NCBI GenBank assembly: GCA_041665925.1
Contig: JBAYHW010000003.1
Span: 7,737-71,736, forward strand
DNA from: Minisyncoccota bacterium
Lineage (GTDB): Bacteria; Patescibacteriota; Minisyncoccia; Phycocordibacterales; UBA9973
Reading direction: 5' to 3'
Length of the DNA: 64,000 bases
Positions 1-61,504 of the stretch are shown here, piece after piece (position 1 is the first letter of the stretch; each line of letters opens with the position of its first letter). Made by a program: the position numbers and the translations under genes. Below the pieces are notes generated by a model that saw nothing but the letters and a program-made list of their open reading frames with translations, made no database searches and was not told where the DNA came from.

Positions 1-225
1 CACACCGAGGGTGTGCCCTAAAACGATTGCAAATTGGCGGAAAGACTCTCCAGGTGGCATCTGAGAATCCAGACACCCTCCAGAGCTAAGAGCCAGCATC
101 CCGACCCGTCACTCACGGTCGGCCATAGAGCCCTCGGGCTCCCCTGGGCAAATCGCTCCTTCTTCATGCATTCCATGCTAGCAATGCATGCTTCCCAAAG
201 AGCCCCTCCGAATATATTTCTATAG
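1..225. other. GC-rich non-coding stretch, possibly a structured RNA that is partial at the window edge
   Basis: About 60% GC in a roughly 35% GC genome, many short hairpins (for example gagcccgagggctc), and no convincing ORF. The 63-aa ORF 34..225 has no protein-like composition. Confidence 0.3.
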
Positions 226-6468: not shown

Positions 6469-7200
6469 TTACAACTTCTCTACTTTAAAAGTGACTTTGT
6501 AGTTTGTATACGGCACAGGTTTACTTGCGAGAGGAAATGGTGAACTTGAGACTAAGGAAACTTTCCAAGTATCGAAGCCTCGAGGAGCATCGTTGTCCGC
6601 CATGTTTAAGGTCTCCTGATCAGTATTAGATTTCAAAGTAACATTAACGACGATGTTACCCGCCTGAATACAAGTAGCATCAGCAGGACAGCGACTGTCG
6701 GACAATATTTTATTCAAAGTGATCCGTACTCCATTTATATATTTAGTCTCACCCACCCCGACGATACCGGTAGTAGCAACTTCAGGTGTAGTTTCTTCTA
6801 TCATATCTACCTCGAGAGTGCTGCCAGTGGTAAAGGCCCCCTTCACTTTCACCGTCTTATTTACTAACGTTCCGAGGACGTTGCTTATTCTAGAAAATTT
6901 CAAGGGCATAGAGTATGAAACTTCTTGACCAGAATTTTCTGGCGCAGCAACTATCAAGAAAAAGTCTGCGCCCTGCTGTGACAACTTACCTGTAAATGAT
7001 TCTTGGTTTTGACAGGCTTGAAACTCACACTTAGGACCACTTCTGCCCACCCCGGAACCGTCCGGGCAAATGAGCGCATCCATGGTGCAAGCATATGGTT
7101 CGTCATCAGTTATGTCTGCAGTTTGTTTATCTTTAAAAAAGAAAAACAAGCCTGCTAGAACTGCTAAAATCACTAAAATTAGTATGTAGAATTTTTTCAT
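6469..7200 (-). CDS. secreted or anchored Cys-rich hypothetical protein
   Basis: N-terminal TM/signal and multiple Cys pairs. Confidence 0.55.
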   Translation of the reverse strand: MKKFYILILVILAVLAGLFFFFKDKQTADITDDEPYACTMDALICPDGSGVGRSGPKCEFQACQNQESFTGKLSQQGADFFLIVAAPENSGQEVSYSMPLKFSRISNVLGTLVNKTVKVKGAFTTGSTLEVDMIEETTPEVATTGIVGVGETKYINGVRITLNKILSDSRCPADATCIQAGNIVVNVTLKSNTDQETLNMADNDAPRGFDTWKVSLVSSSPFPLASKPVPYTNYKVTFKVEKL

Positions 7201-10357: not shown

Positions 10358-10443
10358 AAATTTTTATAATTAGTTGTTAATATAGACCTAACTATTATGC
10401 CGTATGTGAAGAGATTTGATTTCAATTATTTTTATATCTCAAC

Positions 10444-11631: not shown

Positions 11632-11714
11632 ATATTTTTCTATTAATTATTATTGTTAATTACGACTAATAAAGACCTACATATAATGCCGTAGAGATAT
11701 AGAATTTATTTCAA

Positions 11715-12653
11715 TTATTTATTAGCGGAACACTTGACCTGAAGCTCAGCGAGGTCAGCCGCGGTCGCCACTTGATTGTCGCCTTGATTGAGCTCGTACA
11801 TTATCGCTTTCGGATCCTTCACATGCTCCAGGGCGAGAGCGTGCCCTAATTCATGAGCTAAAACACGCACAAGCTTTTCCCTACTACTAAATTCATAAAT
11901 ATCTATTTCCCTCTTTATCTCCTCCTCGATATATACTCCTTCTTCGAAAGACTCTCCGCGAGAAATATTTATGTCATTGTATTTTTCTACCGTGAGATTT
12001 AAAATTTTAGCCAATCTGTTAATCGCCACGACTATAGAGTTCACCTCAGAAGCTAATTCATTTACCTGCCTCTGTTTCTCTTCTAGTGTCCTACCGAGTG
12101 TCTGGAGAGCCTGGTGCTCTTTTTCTAATTTATTAAATTCATCTTCGGGGGCTCCGCCTTTTTTATTCCAAAAATTCACTTCTCGTTCGTAAGCACTCGT
12201 GCGAGCGTTGAAGGCGCTAATCTCTGCCTCGAGAGAACTTTTTTCTTTTTCATATTGAATCTTTAATGGTTCAAATTTTGCCCGCAGACTGTCGTACGAT
12301 GCCTTGTTGTCTTTCACTACAATGCCTAAGTCGTCGAGCTTGCTCGTAGCCTGCTGACGATAATCATATATAAGATTTATGGTTAAAACATTTGGTAATG
12401 TATTGGTAGGCTGATATTCGAAAAGATTCTTGCCATAAGGAGTCTCCCAGACTTGCTCTGCTTCTGACAATGCTTCCAGAAAATATTTCTCTGAAATACC
12501 GAAATTAATATTAAACTTGCCAATGTTATACGGTATGGGCTCGGTGCATGGTGCTGGCTGTAAAAATGGAATGTAATCCCGAAATGCATACACCACTGCT
12601 CCGAGAAAAATGAAAGTGGTGAAAAATTTTAAGATACTTGATATTAGCTTCAT
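11715..12653 (-). CDS. membrane-anchored matrixin-like zinc metalloprotease (metzincin)
   Basis: HELGHALALEH zinc motif plus an AIMY Met-turn. N-terminal TM and a coiled-coil middle region. Confidence 0.75.
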   Translation of the reverse strand: MKLISSILKFFTTFIFLGAVVYAFRDYIPFLQPAPCTEPIPYNIGKFNINFGISEKYFLEALSEAEQVWETPYGKNLFEYQPTNTLPNVLTINLIYDYRQQATSKLDDLGIVVKDNKASYDSLRAKFEPLKIQYEKEKSSLEAEISAFNARTSAYEREVNFWNKKGGAPEDEFNKLEKEHQALQTLGRTLEEKQRQVNELASEVNSIVVAINRLAKILNLTVEKYNDINISRGESFEEGVYIEEEIKREIDIYEFSSREKLVRVLAHELGHALALEHVKDPKAIMYELNQGDNQVATAADLAELQVKCSANK

Positions 12654-12658
12654 TTTAT

Positions 12659-12688
12659 TTTACTTGCTAGGTCTTGCCTAGCAAGTTT
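12659..12688. repeat. REP-like palindromic element, copy A: ttacttgctaggtcttgcctagcaagtttc
   Basis: Identical 30-mer at 13829-13858 and a partial inverted copy at 13384-13395. Confidence 0.7.
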
Positions 12689-13352
12689 CTATATCATTAT
12701 AAGATAACCATTCGAAAATTTCTCTTTTAAAAACTTCGGGTGATGAAAAATATCTTGGATAGTCCTTATAATTTATAATACCATTTTGCTTTCGCACCTT
12801 GCCTATGTAATCCGGATAACTCGAAAAATAATATTTTTGCAAAAAATCTATGGCTTTTGTTTTATTTTTTATACCATTTTCCTTCCAGTCCCCTTGAATC
12901 AATTTGACCGGGTTCAAATGTATATAGGAAAAAATGTATTTCAAATATCTATCATCTCCTAAATGCTCTGATTTAAATTTCCCCTCAAAAAGTCCGCCTG
13001 TTCTTTTATATTTATTATTAAAATACATTACATATGCTGTACTTACTTTCTGCATAAATTTACTGATACCATTTTCCTCTTTTTCAGTTACTAGGATATG
13101 AAAATGGTTAGGCATCAGTACAAAAGACCCGATACTTATCAAGGGCTTGCCTCTTTCAAAAAGATACGGGTCCTTTTCTTTCGTATTTTCCACTAAGAAA
13201 TTCCGAAAATTATTAGTCCCATTACAGGTATACAAAAGAGTGATAAAACGGTAATAATCTTCTTTTTCGAGAAAAATTTTTTGTTTACTATTCCCGCGAT
13301 TATACAAATGATAGTATTCTCCTACAGCAAATGATGTAGTGCGTACTGACAT
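12678..13352 (-). CDS. IS200-like Y1 (HUH) transposase, RAYT-like (REP-associated tyrosine transposase)
   Basis: YHLYNRG N-terminal motif, HUH motif MPNHFHILV, and catalytic Tyr in YIHLNPVK. At 224 aa it is longer than a classic IS200 TnpA, as RAYTs are. Confidence 0.8.
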   Translation of the reverse strand: MSVRTTSFAVGEYYHLYNRGNSKQKIFLEKEDYYRFITLLYTCNGTNNFRNFLVENTKEKDPYLFERGKPLISIGSFVLMPNHFHILVTEKEENGISKFMQKVSTAYVMYFNNKYKRTGGLFEGKFKSEHLGDDRYLKYIFSYIHLNPVKLIQGDWKENGIKNKTKAIDFLQKYYFSSYPDYIGKVRKQNGIINYKDYPRYFSSPEVFKREIFEWLSYNDIETC

Positions 13353-13383
13353 GCTTTAATTATACTCTATCCCGAATTTGCGA

Positions 13384-13395
13384 GGCAAGACCTAG
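13384..13395. repeat. partial REP-like half-site (ggcaagacctag) in inverted orientation
   Basis: Matches the core of the 30-bp element. Confidence 0.4.
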
Positions 13396-13416
13396 AAAAT
13401 CAGAAATCTTATCAAC

Positions 13417-13821
13417 TTAGTCAATCAAATTTTTAACCTTTAAATCATCAAAAACAAACTGACTTACAAGAGAGGTCAGTTCCTTCTTCGAGTAGTGAAA
13501 CCAGTCAATTGCACCTATTTCATTACTTGGCTTAAGTGTTCCTTGGTATTTTGCCTGATAGCATTTTAATTTAACTATCGTCCCTTCAGGCTTGCCATGC
13601 GCTTGAGCCTCGAAGGTCCCATAATACAATATAGTAACTGGATCTAAATCGACATTCAATTCCTCTTTGATTTCTCGTACAAGGGCTTGTTCATCACTTT
13701 CACCTTCTTCGCGTTTTCCGCCAGCAAAATACCAAGTATCCTTATTATGACTACGAGTTACCAAAACTTTTCGGTCTTGTATTTCAATAAGGGCTGATTT
13801 GTAGATGTATGTTTTTCCCAT
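13417..13821 (-). CDS. NUDIX hydrolase
   Basis: Nudix box GGKREEGESDEQALVREIKEELNV. Confidence 0.8.
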   Translation of the reverse strand: MGKTYIYKSALIEIQDRKVLVTRSHNKDTWYFAGGKREEGESDEQALVREIKEELNVDLDPVTILYYGTFEAQAHGKPEGTIVKLKCYQAKYQGTLKPSNEIGAIDWFHYSKKELTSLVSQFVFDDLKVKNLID

Positions 13822-13828
13822 TTTTTTC

Positions 13829-13866
13829 TTACTTGCTAGGTCTTGCCTAGCAAGTTTCCTAGCAAG
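13829..13866. repeat. REP-like palindromic element, copy B, plus an extra half-site cctagcaag
   Basis: Identical to 12659-12688. Confidence 0.7.
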
Positions 13867-13868
13867 TT

Positions 13869-14864
13869 TTATTTCTCGCTTAGAGTGTACCTGTCTAGAA
13901 TAGCTTCGAAGATAAGTGGGGCAACTATGGTGGCGTCAGACTCTATCACGAACATGGGGGTGTCTTTGGTTAATTTGTCCCAAGTGATTTTTTCATTCGG
14001 AGTAGCTCCAGAGTATGAGCCATATGAAGTAGTACTGTCTGAAATCTGACAGAAATAACCCCAAGGTCGGACGGGCTTCTTTAAATCATATTTAATAGAT
14101 GGCACGACGCAAATAGGAAAATCTCCAGAAATTCCTCCCCCTATCTGGAAAAATCCTAGCCCGGGACCTCCTGCGGAAAGTTCAAGATATTTATCGTAAA
14201 GATCCATCATGTATTCCACCCCAGTCTTCATGACACTAGACTTGACCTCCCCAGCTTTACAATAACCTGCGAAAATATTCCCCAAAGTAGAATCCTCCCA
14301 CCCAGGCACGACTATCGGCAAATTTTTCTTAGCAGCTTCGAGGAGCCAGCAATGCTCTGGATTACCTTCGTATTTATCTTTCAATTCATCAGACAAGAGA
14401 ATTTGATAAAAATATTCGTGCGGAAAATATCTCTCACCCTTGGCCTCGGCTTCTTTCCAGCGTTTCAAAATAATCGGCTCTACGACACGAAAAGCTTCTT
14501 CTTCGGGAATGGATGTATCTGTAACCCTTCGCTCCCCTCTTTCTAAAATTTTCTGATCGTCTTCTTTCGTAAAATACCTATAATCAGGATAATCCTTATA
14601 GCTATCGTGTGCCACTAAGCGAAAAACTGATTCCTCTAGGTTAGCTCCCGTACAGGAGATGGCATGAATTTTATTTTCTTTAATCATAGCCGCTAGGGTA
14701 ATGCCCATCTGTGCGGACGACATGGCTCCCCCCATAGCAAGCATCATTTTCCCCCCACCGTCCAAGTGCGCCTTGAAAGCGAGAGTGGCATCTTTCATAG
14801 CCCTCGAGTTAAAATTATGGAATAATTTCTGAAACAAGCCCAATATTGAAATTTCTTTTGACAT
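13869..14864 (-). CDS. deoxyhypusine synthase-like family protein
   Basis: GGAMSSAQ and QIGGGISGDFPI Gly-rich NAD-binding-like motifs. The assignment is tentative. Confidence 0.45.
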   Translation of the reverse strand: MSKEISILGLFQKLFHNFNSRAMKDATLAFKAHLDGGGKMMLAMGGAMSSAQMGITLAAMIKENKIHAISCTGANLEESVFRLVAHDSYKDYPDYRYFTKEDDQKILERGERRVTDTSIPEEEAFRVVEPIILKRWKEAEAKGERYFPHEYFYQILLSDELKDKYEGNPEHCWLLEAAKKNLPIVVPGWEDSTLGNIFAGYCKAGEVKSSVMKTGVEYMMDLYDKYLELSAGGPGLGFFQIGGGISGDFPICVVPSIKYDLKKPVRPWGYFCQISDSTTSYGSYSGATPNEKITWDKLTKDTPMFVIESDATIVAPLIFEAILDRYTLSEK

Positions 14865-15190: not shown

Positions 15191-16945
15191 ATGGAAAAAT
15201 TTTATAGTCGGATACGCAATTTTAAATTGCCTAAAAAAGACGAACTTAATTCAGTTTTTCATTCCTTTTCAAAAAATGAATGGATTGTTTTTATTCTGCT
15301 TGTAGTTATATTTTTCATCAGCACGATAACTATAGTAGAAAGTATAAATAAGTCCTTGATGGTGAAAGTTCCATTCCGTGGTGGATCTATCTCTGAAGGA
15401 ATAATTGGAGCACCTCGTTTTATCAATCCAGTTTTAGCCAATTCTCCTGCTGATTTGGACATGGCGGCACTCGTATACTCAGGACTAATGAGAAAAAATG
15501 GAGATGGGACTCTTTCCCCAGACTTGGCAGAAAAATACGAGATGTCCAAAGATGGGTTGACTTACACATTCACGCTGAAAACAGGAATCGTGTTTCATGA
15601 TGGATTACCAATTACAGCGGATGACGTCATCTTTACTATTAACAAAGCAAAGGATTCAATTTTAAAAAGTCCAAGAAAAATAGACTGGGACGGAGTCACG
15701 GTTAAAAAAATAGACGACAGAACAATAGAATTTAACTTAAAACAACATATTCCAGCATTTCTAGAAAATGCAACTTTAGGAATAATGCCAGCGGCAATTT
15801 GGAGCGATTCGGCAATAGAATTAAATCCGGCTAACACATTCCCAATAGGATCTGGACCCTACATGATAAAAGATGTTGCGAAAGAATCTTCTGGAGTCAT
15901 AAATTCTTACGCCATGGAGGCCTTCGATAAATTTATTTTAGGTGAACCATACATTAATACAATGAACGTGCATTTTTATACTAACGAAAATGAACTCGTC
16001 AACGCCCTTGAAAATAAAGAAGTGGATCAAATAAGTTCTATCACCCCGCTCAATGCCGATATATTGAAAGAAAGAAATTTCCAAATTGAATCTTCGGTGT
16101 TGCCTAGAGTGTTCGGATTATTTTTTAATCAAAATCACAACCAACTTTTTACCAATAAAGTAATAACCAAAGCCATAGATCAGGCGATAGATAAAGATAA
16201 AATAGTAAGAGAAATGCTCTTCGGTTATGGTATCGCTATAGATGACCCAATTCCACCTAATCTGACCGCCTATCAAACACTTAGCCCTAAAAACACTCTC
16301 TCCCGCGAAGAGATATTAAAAAATGTAGAAAATAGCTTAGCAAAAGATGGTTGGTCGAAAGGCACAGATGGATTTTTGCAAAAAACTACAACTGATAAAA
16401 AGAAGAAGAAAACAACAGTTCCTCTAGAATTTTCTATCTCTACTGGTAATGCTCCGGAGCTTGCTAAAACAGCCGAACTAATAAAACAAGACTTAACGGC
16501 TATAGGAATGAAGGTAGATGTCAAAACCTTTGAAGTCGGTAATTTGAACGAAGGCGTCATTCGTCCTCGAGATTATGATGCTCTGTTGTTCGGACAAATT
16601 ATAAATCACGAATCAGACCTGTTTGCGTTCTGGCATTCATCTCAACGCAAGGACCCTGGACTCAATGTGGCGATGTATACCAATGCCAAGGTAGATAAAA
16701 TTCTAAAAGAAGCTTTCTCTATGATTGATGAACAGGCTCGAATAAAACAATATGCGATATTTGAAAGTGAAATTAAAAAAGATATGCCAGCTGTATTTTT
16801 ATACAGTCCAAATTTCATATACGCTCTCTCTGGCAAACTCCAGGGATTGTCTATCGATCATATAACATCCCCTGCGGATCGTTTTTCAAATGTATATTCT
16901 TGGTATACTCAAACAGAAAATGTTTGGAAAATATTCTCTAAATAA
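15191..16945 (+). CDS. ABC transporter substrate-binding protein, family 5 (peptide/nickel type), membrane-anchored
   Basis: SBP_bac_5 signature region DGLTYTFTLKTGIVFHDGLPITADDVIFTI with an N-terminal TM anchor. Confidence 0.8.
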   Translation: MEKFYSRIRNFKLPKKDELNSVFHSFSKNEWIVFILLVVIFFISTITIVESINKSLMVKVPFRGGSISEGIIGAPRFINPVLANSPADLDMAALVYSGLMRKNGDGTLSPDLAEKYEMSKDGLTYTFTLKTGIVFHDGLPITADDVIFTINKAKDSILKSPRKIDWDGVTVKKIDDRTIEFNLKQHIPAFLENATLGIMPAAIWSDSAIELNPANTFPIGSGPYMIKDVAKESSGVINSYAMEAFDKFILGEPYINTMNVHFYTNENELVNALENKEVDQISSITPLNADILKERNFQIESSVLPRVFGLFFNQNHNQLFTNKVITKAIDQAIDKDKIVREMLFGYGIAIDDPIPPNLTAYQTLSPKNTLSREEILKNVENSLAKDGWSKGTDGFLQKTTTDKKKKKTTVPLEFSISTGNAPELAKTAELIKQDLTAIGMKVDVKTFEVGNLNEGVIRPRDYDALLFGQIINHESDLFAFWHSSQRKDPGLNVAMYTNAKVDKILKEAFSMIDEQARIKQYAIFESEIKKDMPAVFLYSPNFIYALSGKLQGLSIDHITSPADRFSNVYSWYTQTENVWKIFSK

Positions 16946-16975
16946 CCCCGACGTAAAGTCGGGGTCCCGACCTAA
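16926..16975 (+). terminator. tandem hairpins ccccgacgtaaagtcgggg and cccgacctaaaagcgtcggg
   Basis: The same cgacgtaaagtcggg core recurs at 21243-21290. Confidence 0.5.
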
Positions 16976-17020
16976 AAGCGTCGGGATTATTAATAAAAAA
17001 CATAAAGTAAAAAAATCATA

Positions 17021-20821: not shown

Positions 20822-21241
20822 ATGTCAAAAAAAGCAAAAATAGCAATATCAACAACTCTAGGATTACTATCTGTATTTTTGTATTTATACGTTATCTCGC
20901 CAGTAAAAATAGCCCCAGCCACATCCACCACCCAACTTGTGCCCACGAAGGAAACGAACAAGAACTTGCCAAGTCCTACAGAGTTATCTTTTATTACCAG
21001 AGAACAAGATACTGTTTACGGTTTCATGGAAAAACTCAAGAAAGAAGGAAAAATAAACTTTGTAGATAAAACTTATTCCGGCATGGGGAAACTTATATTG
21101 TCTATCAATGGACAGAAAAGTAACGGCAATAAAACCTGGATATATTATGTAAACGGCAAGGAGGCCAATGTGGGAATTTCTAATTACCAGATTAAACCAG
21201 GAGATATAGTTTCCTGGAAATATGAATCAGTGCATTATTAA
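20822..21241 (+). CDS. DUF4430 domain protein (transcobalamin beta-domain-like, putative B12-binding), membrane-anchored
   Basis: N-terminal TM, then TWIYYVNGKEANVGISNYQIKPGDIVSWKY, typical of the DUF4430 C-terminus. Confidence 0.65.
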   Translation: MSKKAKIAISTTLGLLSVFLYLYVISPVKIAPATSTTQLVPTKETNKNLPSPTELSFITREQDTVYGFMEKLKKEGKINFVDKTYSGMGKLILSINGQKSNGNKTWIYYVNGKEANVGISNYQIKPGDIVSWKYESVHY

Positions 21242-21242
21242 T

Positions 21243-21290
21243 CCCGACGTAAAGTCGGGACCCCGACATAAATTTATTTGGCGTCGGGGT
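21243..21290 (+). terminator. hairpins cccgacgtaaagtcggg and ccccgacataaatttatttggcgtcgggg
   Basis: Shares a 15-nt core with the terminator at 16926. Confidence 0.5.
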
Positions 21291-58378: not shown

Positions 58379-58446
58379 ATTTGAGCCGCTGGGATGACTT
58401 GCACATCCGACCCACGAATTACGAATTCGTTGCTCTACTACCTGAG

Positions 58447-58908
58447 CTACAGCGGCATATTTTTTGCTAACAAACGTCCTTCTTTAACTCTTTTACTTAG
58501 AGATCTATTTTGTCGACCATTCCCCCTATTAGATCCAGAATATGTTGGGGTCAGTGAATCACAGTTAGGGCAAATTAATCTTAAATTATTTTCCACATTG
58601 TTTCTCCAATTACCATCAACATGATCGGCAACAAGTGGAACCAATCCAGTTTTTTTATTAACTTCTGACCATCCACATAAGCAACATTTATTACCGTACT
58701 TTTCACGTAAATAAATTTTTACAGAAGTAGAAACAATACCTAAGCTTTGTAGTCCGTTTACTTTGCCTTCCTTCCATTTTTTTAAATAACGATCACGCTG
58801 GTAAGCAATTTGACATTTATTACTACAATATTTATACCTAGCTCGCGCTGTTTCTTTTTTACACTTTAAACACTTTTCTCGAATCATCTTAGGTAATGAC
58901 ATAATCAT
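58447..58908 (-). CDS. HNH endonuclease (free-standing, candidate homing endonuclease)
   Basis: CCLCGW...ADHVDGNWRNNVENNLRLICPNCD HNH motif plus N-terminal CxxC pairs. Confidence 0.8.
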   Translation of the reverse strand: MIMSLPKMIREKCLKCKKETARARYKYCSNKCQIAYQRDRYLKKWKEGKVNGLQSLGIVSTSVKIYLREKYGNKCCLCGWSEVNKKTGLVPLVADHVDGNWRNNVENNLRLICPNCDSLTPTYSGSNRGNGRQNRSLSKRVKEGRLLAKNMPL

Positions 58909-58974: not shown

Positions 58975-59239
58975 TTGATTGCTGAGCCGTTGATCGGGAT
59001 TGAACCGATGACCTCGTCATTCGTTTACACCCCTATTTCACCACATCGGCTTATAAGAGGACTAGACTGTATCTTACGCATACCTTTCGGTGTAGCGTCC
59101 CTTGTCAGTCGTTCGGGCGAAATTTCTTTCGCCACGGTCTTGTCCTTTACAGGATATTAACCGTAATTCGGGATTCACAAACAAGTTTCCCTGCAAGTGG
59201 GCTATTAACGATAACCAATGACGTGCTCTACCAACTGAG
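58975..59239 (-). tRNA. tRNA-Thr (anticodon GGU) interrupted by a group I intron of about 192 nt at anticodon loop position 36/37. The intron spans about 59012-59203.
   Basis: 5-prime exon gccgttgtagctcagttggtagagcacgtcattggt. 3-prime exon aatgacgaggtcatcggttcaatcccgatcaacggct. The acceptor is perfectly paired and the anticodon stem cgtca/tgacg is restored on splicing. The intron has an R-like element cgaacgactgacaag and an S-like element gtaagatacagtctagtcc. The 5-prime exon ends in U and the intron ends in G. Confidence 0.6.
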
Positions 59240-59614
59240 CTACAACGGCAAAACGACTTTTCGACCTACCAAAACAGCTACAACGGCAACACTCAATCAT
59301 ACTAGTGCATTTTTACTTATTTTGCAAAAACCTTTACCTGATATATAAATAATTTACTTATTAAGTTCTTTCTCTGCTTGGTTGGCTAAGTCAATGATGA
59401 CACCTATTTCTTCCATCGTCAGTTTTTAGGCTTTGTATCTAAAATAACCAACCTATTAACTGCTTCAATTCTTTTTTCTTCATCTACCCCCGTTGGCGCA
59501 TTTTGCATCAATTAATAATACAATTTTTAATTGCGTCTGTAAATAAAAACACACAGAGGTTATCCCCATTTAACTTGAAAAGAGTTTTTAATTCAAGCGA
59601 GGAACTGCGGTTCA

Positions 59615-59965: not shown

Positions 59966-59976
59966 TTATAAATATT

Positions 59977-60072
59977 ACCACAGTTCCCCGTCCACTACAC
60001 CCGTGAACTTTATATGCTTATTTTATTGAGTTAAAACCTTTGCGCGAACTAGTGAACGGTGTTAGAACTGCT
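59977..60072. repeat. repeat element of about 95 bp bounded by inverted repeats, copy 1, with an extended -10 (TGGTAATAT) facing the downstream minus-strand gene
   Basis: About 85-90% identical to copies at 60509-60603 and 61329-61426. Termini cagttccccgtccactac and ctagtgaacggtgttagaactg are inverted repeats. Confidence 0.65.
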
Positions 60073-60495
60073 ATTTTGCTGAATCATTTGAGTATTTTTT
60101 CTAAGAGAAAGGTATGAGATTTCTATAATTACAAAAGCTAACAAAACAATGGCGGTCATGGTCATAATCCCACCCGTCCATGCTAGTTCAGTTTTAGTTG
60201 AAGAAGATAATAAATAGACTATGTATAAAAATAAGATTACGGGTGGTAACGGCAAAGCAAAAGCGGCCCAGTGTTTGTCTTTTCTAAAAGCCAGAGCAAT
60301 TATTATTGAGAGTACACCAACGATAAGCCAAAACACTGCTTCAGTAAAACCCTGTGATAATGAAATCCCGTAGTAATACTGATTACCAGTATCTTGAGTT
60401 GCGAGCCTTATTAAGTGCAATAAATTATTTACACCGCCATAAAAACCAATGAGCAAACCTAGGAGCACATTAATAATTATAAAAAATGTTTTCAT
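60049..60495 (-). CDS. 4-TM membrane protein
   Basis: Hydrophobic ORF. Its last 8 codons overlap the repeat arm. Confidence 0.5.
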   Translation of the reverse strand: MKTFFIIINVLLGLLIGFYGGVNNLLHLIRLATQDTGNQYYYGISLSQGFTEAVFWLIVGVLSIIIALAFRKDKHWAAFALPLPPVILFLYIVYLLSSSTKTELAWTGGIMTMTAIVLLAFVIIEISYLSLRKNTQMIQQNSSSNTVH

Positions 60496-60508
60496 ATACC
60501 CAAATCAT

Positions 60509-60603
60509 ACCATAGTTCAAGTCCAATACACCCGTGAACTTTCTGTCCTTATTTTATTGAGTCAAAACCTTGGCGCGACTTAGTGGATGGTGTTAGAACT
60601 ACT
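60509..60603. repeat. repeat element of about 95 bp, copy 2 (extended -10 TGGTATGAT)
   Basis: See copy 1. Confidence 0.65.
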
Positions 60604-60633
60604 TTTCATCTTGTTTAAATTTTATTTCATTTC

Positions 60634-61284
60634 CTAATAAAGCGACCAGGTTAGGAGAGCGGCAATATCATATGCTGCCAAATGAATCATGAAGTTATAT
60701 ACATAGCCATTTCTTACCTTCAATAACATATAAGGAAATATAAACGAAGCTAATATCGCAAAGAAAGTGAAACCAAGGCCAATAATTGTATCCGCTTTGA
60801 ATATTAGAAAAATGTGAATAGCTCCGAAAAATACAACAAAAAGTGTGATTATCTTCTTTAAGCTCATGCCAGATTGATACAATTTAGTCACCAAAATAGT
60901 GATTAGTAGTTGTTGCACGAATATTTCAAGTGGTTTTGCATAAATAAAGAAATTATTCATTAGTAAAAAGGAAATCCCACGACTCTCAAATGGCCATGCG
61001 GGTTGATCCACAAAATTGAGAATAAAATAAGAAGTAATCCCATGAAAAATAAGGGGGAGAACAACAAGAATAATAAACTCATGCCTGTGTGTTCTCTGTA
61101 TAACTTCAGTAAATACTTTTTTGAAAAAGACCATAAGTGCTAGTGCCATGAGGGACAAAAATGACCCAATTAAGATGTATCTACTGTGAGTAAATATCAG
61201 GCTGGGAAATAAAGTAGTAACACTGAAAGCCAACACAAAAAAGAGTATCGGGGATGTGGTGTTGTTTTTAATTAAAGAAACCAT
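60634..61284 (-). CDS. polytopic membrane protein (6-7 TM)
   Basis: Hydrophobic ORF. No convincing CPBP motifs. Confidence 0.5.
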   Translation of the reverse strand: MVSLIKNNTTSPILFFVLAFSVTTLFPSLIFTHSRYILIGSFLSLMALALMVFFKKVFTEVIQRTHRHEFIILVVLPLIFHGITSYFILNFVDQPAWPFESRGISFLLMNNFFIYAKPLEIFVQQLLITILVTKLYQSGMSLKKIITLFVVFFGAIHIFLIFKADTIIGLGFTFFAILASFIFPYMLLKVRNGYVYNFMIHLAAYDIAALLTWSLY

Positions 61285-61328
61285 TTTTTATACAATAAAA
61301 TAAATCGGGGTTATTTATACCAAAATCA

Positions 61329-61426
61329 TACCACAGTTCCCCGTCCACTACACCCGTGAAGTTTTTGTGCTTATTTTATTGAGTTAAAACCTTTGCGCGG
61401 GCTAGTGTATGACATTAGAACTGCTT
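61329..61426. repeat. repeat element of about 95 bp, copy 3 (extended -10 TGGTATGAT)
   Basis: See copy 1. Confidence 0.65.
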
Positions 61427-61504
61427 TTGAAGAAAAAAACGATACCACAATCTATATCCCCCAACTAGTATAAAATATCGTCAGTATCGTAAATAGCTTA
61501 CAAA

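Follow-up and report, generated by a model that had tools for sequence, protein, structure and literature searches.

REP/RAYT systems have been documented mainly in Proteobacteria, Cyanobacteria and Bacteroidetes, REP families normally comprise tens to hundreds of copies and, to our knowledge, how these systems spread is still unsolved. REPs have been described as species-specific (PMC6006769, Methods), and both a hairpin end that supplies a TAG stop codon and copies that lie within replication or repair genes have been reported for them (PMC3733652). The largest RAYT-like subclass, TnpAY1 subclass 2.1 (Quentin et al. 2018), is the same as RAYT Group 1 (Bertels et al. 2017) and consists largely of the TIRYT/TIRtron set of Di Nocera et al. 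2013. Its members have NH[YF]H, W[EQ] or FQ, Y[IV]HLNP and SS motifs and a median length of 238 aa (PMC6006769 Table 1), and the subclass was reported to lack a REP partner, with no REP-like sequences nearby (PMC6006769). In some cases TIRs are reported to be self-complementary, in part or throughout, and to be repeated to a moderate extent (PMC3733652).

The 64-kb stretch of DNA analysed here (the window) comes from a CPR (Paceibacteria-type) bacterium and includes a gene for an HUH/Y1 protein with short hairpins on both sides (Table 1). We consider it likely that this locus is a REPtron-like unit, a variant of the known partnership of REP and RAYT that is low in copy number and conserved to an unusual degree. 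Literature searches on RAYT or REP in CPR/Patescibacteria yielded no specific report. As for E. coli TnpA_REP (RayT, PDB 4ER8) and REP/BIME, the flanking palindromes are cognate and are also found elsewhere, and the gene, like that of the E. coli REPtron, is low-copy and is inherited with its neighbours. As reported for REPs, the window hairpin supplies a TAG stop codon and copies of it lie in replication and repair genes. However, in contrast to the E. coli REPtron, there is no GT[AG]G foot (neither GTAG nor GTGG is conserved at the foot of the hairpin), the palindrome is short and perfect with a constant apical stem and loop and a variable basal 3 bp, there are few copies per genome rather than hundreds, and the 224-aa protein has a predicted helical C-terminal tail and falls below the NCBIfam equivalog cut-off. 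The loop can face either way with respect to the gene, whereas classic REPtrons have regular inverted pairs, and the same core is common to several CPR lineages, rather than being species-specific. An earlier, sequence-only reading had described the locus as the classic REP plus RAYT arrangement. The REPtron-like character is supported, as are the cognate flanking hairpins, but "classic" was an overstatement for a locus with no GT[AG]G foot, three hairpin copies in the window and a RAYT score below the cut-off.

Table 1. Positions of the features of the locus, numbered from the first nucleotide of the window
Feature	Position	Strand	Details
HUH/Y1 gene, RAYT/TnpAY1 class 2 type	12678..13352	-	224 aa
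NUDIX hydrolase gene	13417..13821	-	134 aa, between copy 2 and copy 3
30-mer copy 1	12660..12689	+	hairpin 12662-12686, loop TCTTG, 19-nt core 12665-12683
30-mer copy 2	13829..13858	+	hairpin 13831-13855, core 13834-13852
Copy 3, degenerate, inverted	13375..13406	-	27/32 complementary to copy 2
Tandem duplicate of right arm and tail, CCTAGCAAGTTT	13858..13869	+	
Promoter-like TTGCCT-18 nt-TATAAT	13359..13388	-	10/12 consensus positions

The 224-aa protein matches Pfam Y1_Tnp (35.4 bits, cut-off 23) with no further Pfam match, and includes an HUH motif (N82-H83-F84-H85), a catalytic tyrosine motif (Y143-I-H-L-N147-P148) and an SS motif (S177-S178). The NHFH and YIHLNP motifs show little or no variation across 53 homologues, all 48 invariant residues of the family are present in the window protein, and a motif that is LFEG in its close homologues is LFQG in distant ones. 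The tyrosine motif is of the class-2 Y---NP type and not the Y---Q type of IS200 (PMC6006769 Table 1), and the RAYT model NF047646 was the sole NCBIfam match at E <= 0.01, with 44.6 bits, under its cut-off of 80. On both counts the protein lies apart from canonical IS200 TnpA, as the sequence-only reading had it. By its motifs (NHFH, LFEG, YIHLNP and an SS after the tyrosine) and its length, which is near the median, this RAYT/TnpAY1 class-2 type protein fits subclass 2.1, a placement judged by inspection of the motifs against PMC6006769 Table 1 and not from a tree, and the low intragenomic identity between copies is a further likeness. Unlike what is reported for subclass 2.1, the same hairpin is present on both flanks here and is also found alone elsewhere, and the GGGGWSAS sequence typical of TIRYT repeats is absent from the window flanks. 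Searches of the PDB with the single sequence and with a profile gave no significant match (profile E 0.2). In an AF2 model (pLDDT 85.9), the predicted structure is nearer to that of TnpA_REP than to that of IS200/IS608 TnpA, and residues 156-223 form a helical C-terminal tail. Subclass 2.1 is characterised by a distal HTH-like domain at the C-terminus, and for the tail of the window protein there was no specific fold match.

The 30-mer TTACTTGCTAGGTCTTGCCTAGCAAGTTTC is present as two exact copies (copies 1 and 2, Table 1), and had 0 matches in 100 shuffles. The identical pair had been recognized before, with copy 1 placed one base too early, at 12659. Identity between the two reaches 37 nt at 95 %. 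Folding of both copies as single-stranded DNA bears out the perfect hairpin that had been proposed, with a 10-bp stem and a 5-nt loop in each (-10.1 to -10.5 kcal/mol, z-score -7 to -8). Copy 1 is downstream of the Y1 gene and ends 9 nt from the ATG of an M10-like peptidase gene, while copy 2 is a direct repeat of it, located between the stop codon of a deoxyhypusine-synthase-like gene and the NUDIX gene, the ATG of which is 10 nt from the end of the copy. These direct repeats surround a 1169-bp segment and, as had been stated, bracket both the HUH/Y1 gene and the NUDIX gene. A partial inverted copy that had been noted at 13384-13395 is real but larger (copy 3), and its core, TTCTAGGTCTTGCCTCGCA (13379-13397, minus strand), has 2 mismatches and now folds poorly. 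The right arm of this core, CCTCGCA, is a variant also seen in a syntenic relative, L136. The Y1 gene has copy 1 and the degenerate copy 3, its upstream partner, as its native pair, and copy 2, an exact direct duplicate, is additional to them. The last base of the CCTAGCAAGTTT duplicate beside copy 2 is shared with the stop codon of the upstream gene, and same-side arm duplications were also found elsewhere, 15 among 120 copies compared to 0.29 expected. No further copies of the core with up to 3 mismatches are present in the 64-kb window beyond the three at the unit, and these three are all that were seen in the available sample of the source genome, namely the window and a 93-kb contig.

The consensus hairpin is 25 nt, N3-TGCTAGG-TCTTG-CCTAGCA-N3', of which the apical 19 nt are constant and the basal 3 bp co-vary. 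The basal triplets outside the core differ (ACT, AAT, TTG, AGT, AAC and others) and all four pair types are found there, with Watson-Crick pairing at the three positions of 83 %, 74 % and 67 %, versus 33 %, 27 % and 42 % in permuted controls. In addition, both flanking copies in L136 carry a compensatory variant, TGCGAGG/CCTCGCA. The basal pairing and the compensatory change suggest that selection acts on the structure of the hairpin. As the loci were gathered by exact match to the core, its apparent perfect conservation is partly an ascertainment effect. No Rfam family corresponds to the hairpin; a sub-threshold match to RsaOG (25.6 bits vs 50) was the sole one and was taken as chance.

The palindrome is not limited to the window locus. 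The 19-nt core was found at 10 loci in CPR genomes and in >119 metagenome stretches, which together represent about 120 distinct contexts, and the 122 distinct hairpin copies comprise 39 beside a Y1 gene, 54 alone and 29 that are undecidable. At least 54 copies have no Y1 gene nearby, and these stand-alone copies were checked for location, as had been proposed; 39 of the 54 are intergenic, mostly tens of bases from the end of an open reading frame, and 15 are intragenic. In one Nomurabacteria genome, the hairpin stands alone at three sites, each time with an identical basal triplet, and GTDB representative genomes have no more than 3 exact 23-mers each in a scan that is blind to other basal-stem variants. 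Roughly 9 matches to 18 specified bases are expected by chance in 596 Gb, and the three matches outside the CPR (Actinomycetota, Desulfurococcus and Saprospiraceae), which have unrelated loops, were set aside as chance. The core has no copy in viral contigs and phage carriage therefore fails to explain its conservation across lineages.

Within genes, the core is read as ARQDLA in 16 of the 17 intragenic copies examined, in unrelated proteins, and the genes with an in-frame hairpin include those for DNA ligase, Fpg and KsgA. In LigA, the core takes the place of a segment of equal length (ARQDLA versus GEVKFL), and the stretch that includes ARQDLA is 1 aa longer than in Bacillus LigA and the same length as in an orthologue that lacks the core. 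Clean insertion of the hairpin into genes is not supported, as the length of the LigA segment is unchanged. In Fpg, the ARQDLA stretch is inside an extra segment of roughly 23 aa. The core is identical at one site across diverged orthologues, and a single core sequence is common to CPR lineages in which the Y1 proteins share just 60-70 % identity.

All close homologues of the Y1 protein (59-88 % identity) have the core TGCTAGG-TCTTG-CCTAGCA on both flanks of the gene, and seven distant homologues (28-49 % identity) have other palindromes, again on both flanks, examples being CAGATAGGGGC-TTA-GCCCCTATCTG and GGAAGTC-T-GACTTCC. Since the palindrome differs with the homologue group, the Y1 protein and the palindrome co-vary. 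The orientation of the loop relative to the Y1 gene varies among the homologues. L136 shares with the window a block of genes that runs from the one for a squalene-hopene cyclase, via RNase J, SBP and SecG, to the one for the deoxyhypusine-synthase-like protein, and its Y1 gene is at the same place (72 % identity, with neighbouring proteins at 44-90 %). In a second relative, L135, the Y1 protein is 88 % identical and the order of Y1 gene then M10 peptidase gene is kept. Two homologues, P0040 and P0041, were examined on 24 contigs each, with one gene context per protein, and the window includes one Y1 gene. The Y1 gene, being in the same syntenic place in diverged relatives, is a resident gene and not an insertion sequence, and it is low in copy number and vertically inherited.

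A rival reading is that the locus is an autonomous IS200-like IS of about 0.7 kb (hairpin, tnpA, hairpin), the lone hairpins then being its remnants or miniature derivatives. The fold is that of a Y1 HUH protein, the same catalytic fold as in the IS200/IS605 TnpA (IS608, ISDra2), and recognition of a hairpin in single-stranded DNA is likewise expected; the distance from hairpin to hairpin is 660-740 bp in many loci, close to the roughly 700 bp of IS200, and the gene at one locus (L004) has hairpins 14-16 nt away on both sides. However, we consider this quite unlikely. The syntenic place is kept in relatives with a level of Y1 identity that is within the range for the neighbouring proteins, identical proteins on 24 contigs each are in a single gene context, and there is one syntenic copy and not many identical ones. 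Two family members that are named from a single Nomurabacteria genome share 70 % and 63 % identity with the window protein, and hence are not near-identical copies of each other. The motifs are those of class 2 (Y---NP, NHFH) and not DH[VI]H and Y---Q (PMC6006769), the same perfect palindrome is found at both ends in place of distinct, imperfect left-end and right-end hairpins, there is no tnpB, the sequences just outside the hairpins are unrelated between loci, and viral contigs include no copy.

The hairpins also form part of the predicted signals at both ends of the Y1 gene. The TATAAT of the promoter-like sequence ends 6 nt ahead of the Y1 ATG, a distance that points to a leaderless-type start, and the loop of the upstream hairpin, together with its right arm, makes up the -35 hexamer. 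The same geometry (TTGCCT-16..18-TAnnnT-6..8-ATG) was seen at 12 of 19 distinct homologous loci and the upstream hairpin thus doubles as the predicted -35 box of a leaderless-type Y1 promoter. At the other end of the gene, copy 1 holds the TAG stop codon (12678-12680, minus strand), and a stop codon within a hairpin arm was seen in at least nine homologues.

Overlap of the upstream copy with a promoter is what would be seen if the hairpins were ordinary regulatory or terminator palindromes, or the operator of a transcription factor, and the two exact copies in the window had arisen by a local duplication that has nothing to do with the Y1 protein. Consistent with this, most lone copies are intergenic and often tens of bases from a gene end, several copies elsewhere (L026, L037, L060, L066, L077 and L088) are in an A-run/hairpin/T-run configuration that resembles a bidirectional terminator, and copy 1 scores as a terminator. 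However, the two terminator-like predictions are both at copy 1 and on the plus strand only, whereas every gene here is read from the minus strand, where TAAAATAAAATG and TAAGAAAAAAATG come after the hairpins and neither exact copy has the T-run of an intrinsic terminator behind it. An operator would also leave the arm duplications and palindrome clusters unexplained, and the retention of one reading frame in nearly all of the intragenic copies, in unrelated proteins, as well as the switch of palindrome with Y1 subfamily, always on both sides of the gene, make this explanation very unlikely. An RNA-level role based on loop orientation was dropped, as the bias at the 3' ends of neighbouring genes is weak (41 vs 30).

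The NUDIX gene, which had been noted as bracketed by the palindromes, is missing at both syntenic loci, L136 and L135, and is a lineage-specific passenger outside the conserved unit. In L136, a 58-aa open reading frame is found at the NUDIX place and a gene for a PIF1 helicase is bordered by the downstream hairpin on one side and by a degenerate third hairpin on the other, and in L135 the gene upstream is different. If the hairpins were recombination sites at the borders of single-gene cassettes that the Y1 enzyme exchanges, loosely like integron attC, this would account for the position of the NUDIX gene exactly between two hairpin copies that are direct repeats, for its absence from both relatives and for the other differences in L136 and L135. 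However, the variable genes are known from only three loci with no recurrent cassette, no circular or excised form was observed, most lone hairpins are single and not paired around a gene, and ordinary recombination can also give rise to variable genes beside repeats. We consider this explanation very unlikely.

If the locus is indeed REPtron-like then, by analogy with E. coli TnpA_REP, the Y1 protein would bind the hairpin formed on single-stranded DNA, and the DNA would be cut and rejoined via the single tyrosine of the protein. Over evolutionary time, this activity may copy or maintain hairpins elsewhere, including sites behind genes and sites inside genes in the only frame that would be tolerable, encoding the peptide ARQDLA. 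Copy 2, in front of the NUDIX gene, would be a recent direct duplicate of the downstream copy, and it probably arose when the NUDIX gene joined the unit through insertion or recombination. In-frame palindromes are likewise tolerated in unrelated protein-coding genes in the case of Rickettsia palindromic elements (RPE) and of intragenic REPs. RPEs are insertions of 100-150 bp, and we know of no enzyme partner for them; the unit here is just 19-25 nt (6-8 residues) and left the length of the LigA segment unchanged.

A bolder possibility, which we think unlikely, is that the Y1 enzyme does more than insert its hairpin, and would write the 19-25-nt hairpin over short DNA segments as a templated patch on single-stranded DNA. 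Overwriting would explain the same-length replacement in LigA and the identical core at one site in diverged orthologues, the freely flipping loops and the arm duplications beside full copies, and the use of one core across CPR lineages with Y1 proteins that have diverged to 60-70 % identity. If true, it would point to an ancient, CPR-wide partnership of hairpin and enzyme in which copying works in a way not described for REPs, and, with variable genes (NUDIX, PIF1) next to the hairpins, the unit might also serve as a hotspot for gene exchange.

For the RAYT-like proteins as a group, this locus adds proteins with the subclass 2.1 signature that have an obvious cognate hairpin, and that are found in very small CPR genomes with scant intergenic space. 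The hairpin of 25 nt, with a core that is nearly invariant across lineages, supplies the stop codon and part of the predicted promoter of its partner gene. A small hairpin, a compact protein and many compensatory natural variants make up a simple and well-defined pair of substrate and enzyme, suited to biochemical study of how such hairpins are recognised and copied. For annotation, such CPR "transposase" genes should be viewed as resident genes rather than as markers of mobile islands.

The 30-mer TTACTTGCTAGGTCTTGCCTAGCAAGTTTC occurs at exactly two sites in the window, 12660–12689 and 13829–13858, and none of 100 shuffled controls had any match. The sequence-only reading had described this identical pair correctly, except that its first coordinate was one base too low (12659), and the copies enclose the genes for both the 224 aa HUH/Y1 transposase homologue (Y1) and the NUDIX hydrolase, as it had proposed. 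Flanks included, the repeat is 37 nt long with 95 % identity. As single-stranded DNA, both copies form a 10 bp stem (A-CTTGCTAGG / CCTAGCAAG-T) with a 5 nt loop, folding at −10.1 to −10.5 kcal/mol (z-score −7 to −8). The partial inverted copy noticed earlier near 13384–13395 proved to be a degenerate third copy in inverted orientation (27/32 match), with two mismatches in the core and the loss of a convincing fold. The right arm and tail, CCTAGCAAGTTT, are duplicated in tandem at 13858–13869. No further copies with three or fewer mismatches were found in the 64 kb window, and an Rfam search with the hairpin matched no family.

Every gene in the Y1 stretch is on the minus strand, and the table below runs in the direction of transcription. 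The stop codon of the Y1 gene is the TAG in the first hairpin arm (TGC TAG). The 93 kb ENA contig ERZ27249449:k141_143552 corresponds to the window.

Order of features around the Y1 gene
Feature	Position	Strand	Remark
Deoxyhypusine-synthase-like (DS) gene	13869–14864	minus	upstream neighbour
Duplicated arm and exact copy 2	13829–13869		ends 10 nt before NUDIX ATG
NUDIX	13417–13821	minus	passenger gene
Degenerate copy 3	13375–13406		overlaps putative Y1 promoter
Y1 gene	12678–13352	minus	224 aa
Exact copy 1	12660–12689		holds Y1 stop codon
M10-type peptidase gene	11715–12653	minus	ATG 9 nt after copy 1

Other repeats are present in the window. A 54 nt direct repeat with 78 % identity (10378–10431 and 11667–11720) lies at the 3′ ends of minus-strand genes, just past the DUF218 stop and across the final 6 bases of the M10 peptidase gene, and may be a shared 3′ element. 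A 106 nt direct repeat occurs three times in 59970–61428 (75–88 % identity, spacing 531 and 822 nt). A 27 nt stretch (58435–58461) over the tRNA-Thr gene (58383–58456, minus) recurs about 800 nt away at 59228–59254 and 59266–59292 with 78–85 % identity; ARAGORN finds only the one tRNA there, and the recurrences may be tRNA-derived fragments.

The Y1 family comprises 7145 database proteins at E ≤1e-5, mostly from Nomura- and Zambryskibacteria and other Paceibacterota, and the window protein retains all 48 residues that are invariant among 53 homologues. Its sole NCBIfam match is the RAYT model, at 44.6 bits, below the cut-off of 80, and a sequence-profile search of the PDB was uninformative (E 0.2). 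The best structural match of its AlphaFold model (pLDDT 85.9) is Escherichia coli TnpA_REP (4ER8; Foldseek E 1.2e-4), compared with E 2e-3 or weaker for the TnpA proteins of IS608 and ISDra2. By motif inspection (NHFH, LFEG/LFQG, YIHLNP and SS), and in its length too, the protein fits subclass 2.1 as defined by Quentin et al. Fold, model match and motifs all favour the RAYT type proposed earlier over IS200 TnpA. Subclass 2.1 equals Bertels' Group 1 (PMC6006769 Table 1) and has been reported without a REP nearby (PMC6006769); part of it corresponds to what Di Nocera et al. termed 'TIRYT' genes, which are flanked by TIRs (PMC3733652).

The palindrome is not confined to this locus. When GTDB representative genomes were scanned for the 9 bp stems with any 5 nt loop, 13 loci emerged, ten of them from the candidate phyla radiation (CPR; labelled Nomura-, Zambryski- or Campbellbacteria or Saccharibacteria), and in all ten the loop is identical or a one-base variant. 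The three non-CPR loci have unrelated loops, as expected by chance, and were rejected as chance matches. In metagenomes, the 19 nt core TGCTAGGTCTTGCCTAGCA was found in at least 119 stretches; no viral contig scanned contained it. Among the matches listed, 122 distinct copies remained after removal of duplicates, of which 39 have a homologue of the window Y1 protein no more than 120 nt away and 54 stand alone (at least 900 nt available on both sides, without a Y1 homologue), while 29 were too near a contig end to be called. One Nomurabacteria genome carries three stand-alone copies with a common basal triplet.

Outside the core, the next three positions show Watson–Crick pairing in 83, 74 and 67 % of 120 copies among the matches listed, versus 33, 27 and 42 % in right-flank permutation controls, and use all four pair types. 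Beyond these the signal fades, except for a tail of longer stems with up to 13 extra pairs. The unit is therefore a 25 nt hairpin, with the apical 19 nt constant and the basal triplet co-varying, and selection acts on the hairpin structure itself. In the syntenic relative L136, both Y1-flanking copies carry a compensatory double change (TGCGAGG/CCTCGCA), and the CCTCGCA arm is shared with decayed copy 3 of the window. The apical 19 nt are constant across lineages with Y1 proteins only 60–70 % identical, a constancy that is partly ascertainment as loci were gathered by exact core match; single core mutations are present in close relatives. REPs, in contrast, are usually species-specific.

Both loop orientations relative to the gene occur: by our own count, upstream copies have TCTTG in 13 cases and CAAGA in 4, and downstream copies CAAGA in 10 and TCTTG in 7. 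Same-side arm duplications, like that in the window, number 15 against 0.29 expected among the matches listed. Loop flipping and arm duplication hint at template switching or repeated enzyme action on hairpins. At one collected locus (L075, 2060–2097), two full cores abut with opposite loops (TGCTAGGCAAGACCTAGCA then TGCTAGGTCTTGCCTAGCA), a head-to-head doublet resembling REP dimers.

The conserved position, divergence and contexts of the Y1 gene argue against an active IS200-type element. L136 shares with the window the upstream block of squalene-hopene cyclase (53 % identity), DUF4430 (44 %), CTP transferase (64 %), MFS (58 %), RNase J (52 %), SBP (70 %), SecG (87 %) and DS (90 %), and its Y1 gene occupies the same position after DS. 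At 72 % identity, Y1 falls within the 44–90 % range of its neighbours and has therefore diverged in step with them. A second relative, L135 (Y1 88 % identical), keeps the order Y1 then M10 peptidase, and two other homologues, on 24 contigs each, have a single context (aminoacyl-tRNA synthetase, Y1, ribosomal protein S2, EF-Ts). A resident, low-copy, vertical pattern is also that of RAYTs (PMC5581495). The gene content directly beside the unit is variable: NUDIX is absent from both L136 and L135, which have ORFs of 58 and 133 aa, respectively, in that position, and in L136 (10670–12335) the downstream Y1 hairpin and a degenerate third one, which has a T-run, enclose a PIF1-type helicase gene. 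Exact copy 2 seems to have been duplicated recently, in connection with the gain of NUDIX.

In every close Y1 homologue (59–88 % identity), the gene is flanked on either side by the core. At 12 of 19 distinct loci, the upstream copy supplies TTGCCT (loop and right arm), followed after 16–18 nt by a TAnnnT hexamer and, 6–8 nt later, the ATG; the corresponding window site (13388..13359, minus) matches 10 of 12 consensus positions. This would be a leaderless-type promoter built partly from the upstream hairpin. The downstream copy provides the Y1 stop codon at nine or more loci. Seven distant homologues (28–49 % identity) have other palindromes at equivalent positions on both sides, in several cases again enclosing the stop codon. 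Protein and palindrome thus co-vary in this family, which is what defines RAYT/REP pairs (PMC6006769, section 12). The distant Y1 proteins of L025 (39 % identity) and L073 (3679–4383) contain IEVKPLSE/IESKALSE, the peptide coded by the palindromes flanking these genes themselves, and the pattern gives six matches in L025 counting both strands, i.e. three sites. This suggests a palindrome copy within the Y1 genes, as reported for subclass 2.4 (PMC6006769).

A second, unrelated palindrome family occurs in the window at 16943–16990 and 21239–21290, as doublets of CCCCGAC/GTCGGGG-type hairpins that start exactly at the TAA stop of two plus-strand genes (for example TAA CCCCGAC GTAAA GTCGGGG T CCCGAC CTAAAAGC GTCGGGA). 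No second Y1 gene was found in the window.

Stand-alone copies are mostly but not exclusively intergenic: among the matches listed, 39 of 54 fall between genes, as a rule no more than tens of bases from the end of an ORF, and 15 lie inside long ORFs. Of 17 intragenic cores among the matches listed, 16 are read in one frame and orientation as ARQDLA and one in the alternative open frame as ARSCLA; the remaining frames hit TAG. REPs giving TAG stops and REPs in replication and repair genes are known (PMC3733652). The proteins concerned include NAD-dependent DNA ligase (LigA), Fpg/MutM, a KsgA-like methyltransferase and an FAD-linked oxidase, with the core at the same site in three diverged LigA and three diverged oxidase orthologues. 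In the LigA-like ORF of L051 (about 7113–7165), the ARQDLA core is immediately preceded by two copies of a different palindrome, AGATAGAGGT-TAA/TTA-ACCTCTATCT, read in frame as the peptide IEVKPLS...DRGLTSI. This palindrome belongs to a different Y1 subfamily as its cognate flank, so that three palindrome units cluster in one DNA ligase gene. A clean insertion into LigA was rejected: coreless L083 (133–390) has GEVKFL where L063 (6642–6899) has ARQDLA, with 5/18 nucleotides identical in frame (our own count), and Bacillus LigA differs from the core-bearing LigA at this segment by one residue in length. As the L083 and L063 segments are of equal length, the LigA core appears to be a substitution of existing sequence, not an insertion.

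What was observed is the anatomy, conservation, co-variation, structural similarity and synteny of the unit, and the REPtron-like reading (REP palindromes with a partner RAYT gene) is supported. The system departs from the REP/RAYT pairs described so far in how the hairpin is built, in copy number, in its conservation across lineages and in the group of hosts. In the most likely account, for which we infer the enzymatic activity, copying mechanism and promoter function, a domesticated Y1 HUH enzyme would recognise its cognate 25 nt hairpin on single-stranded DNA and now and then copy it to other sites, and the hairpins at the Y1 gene would have been recruited to serve as promoter and stop signals. 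A cognate palindrome is now seen for a protein subclass (2.1, by motifs) reported to lack one.
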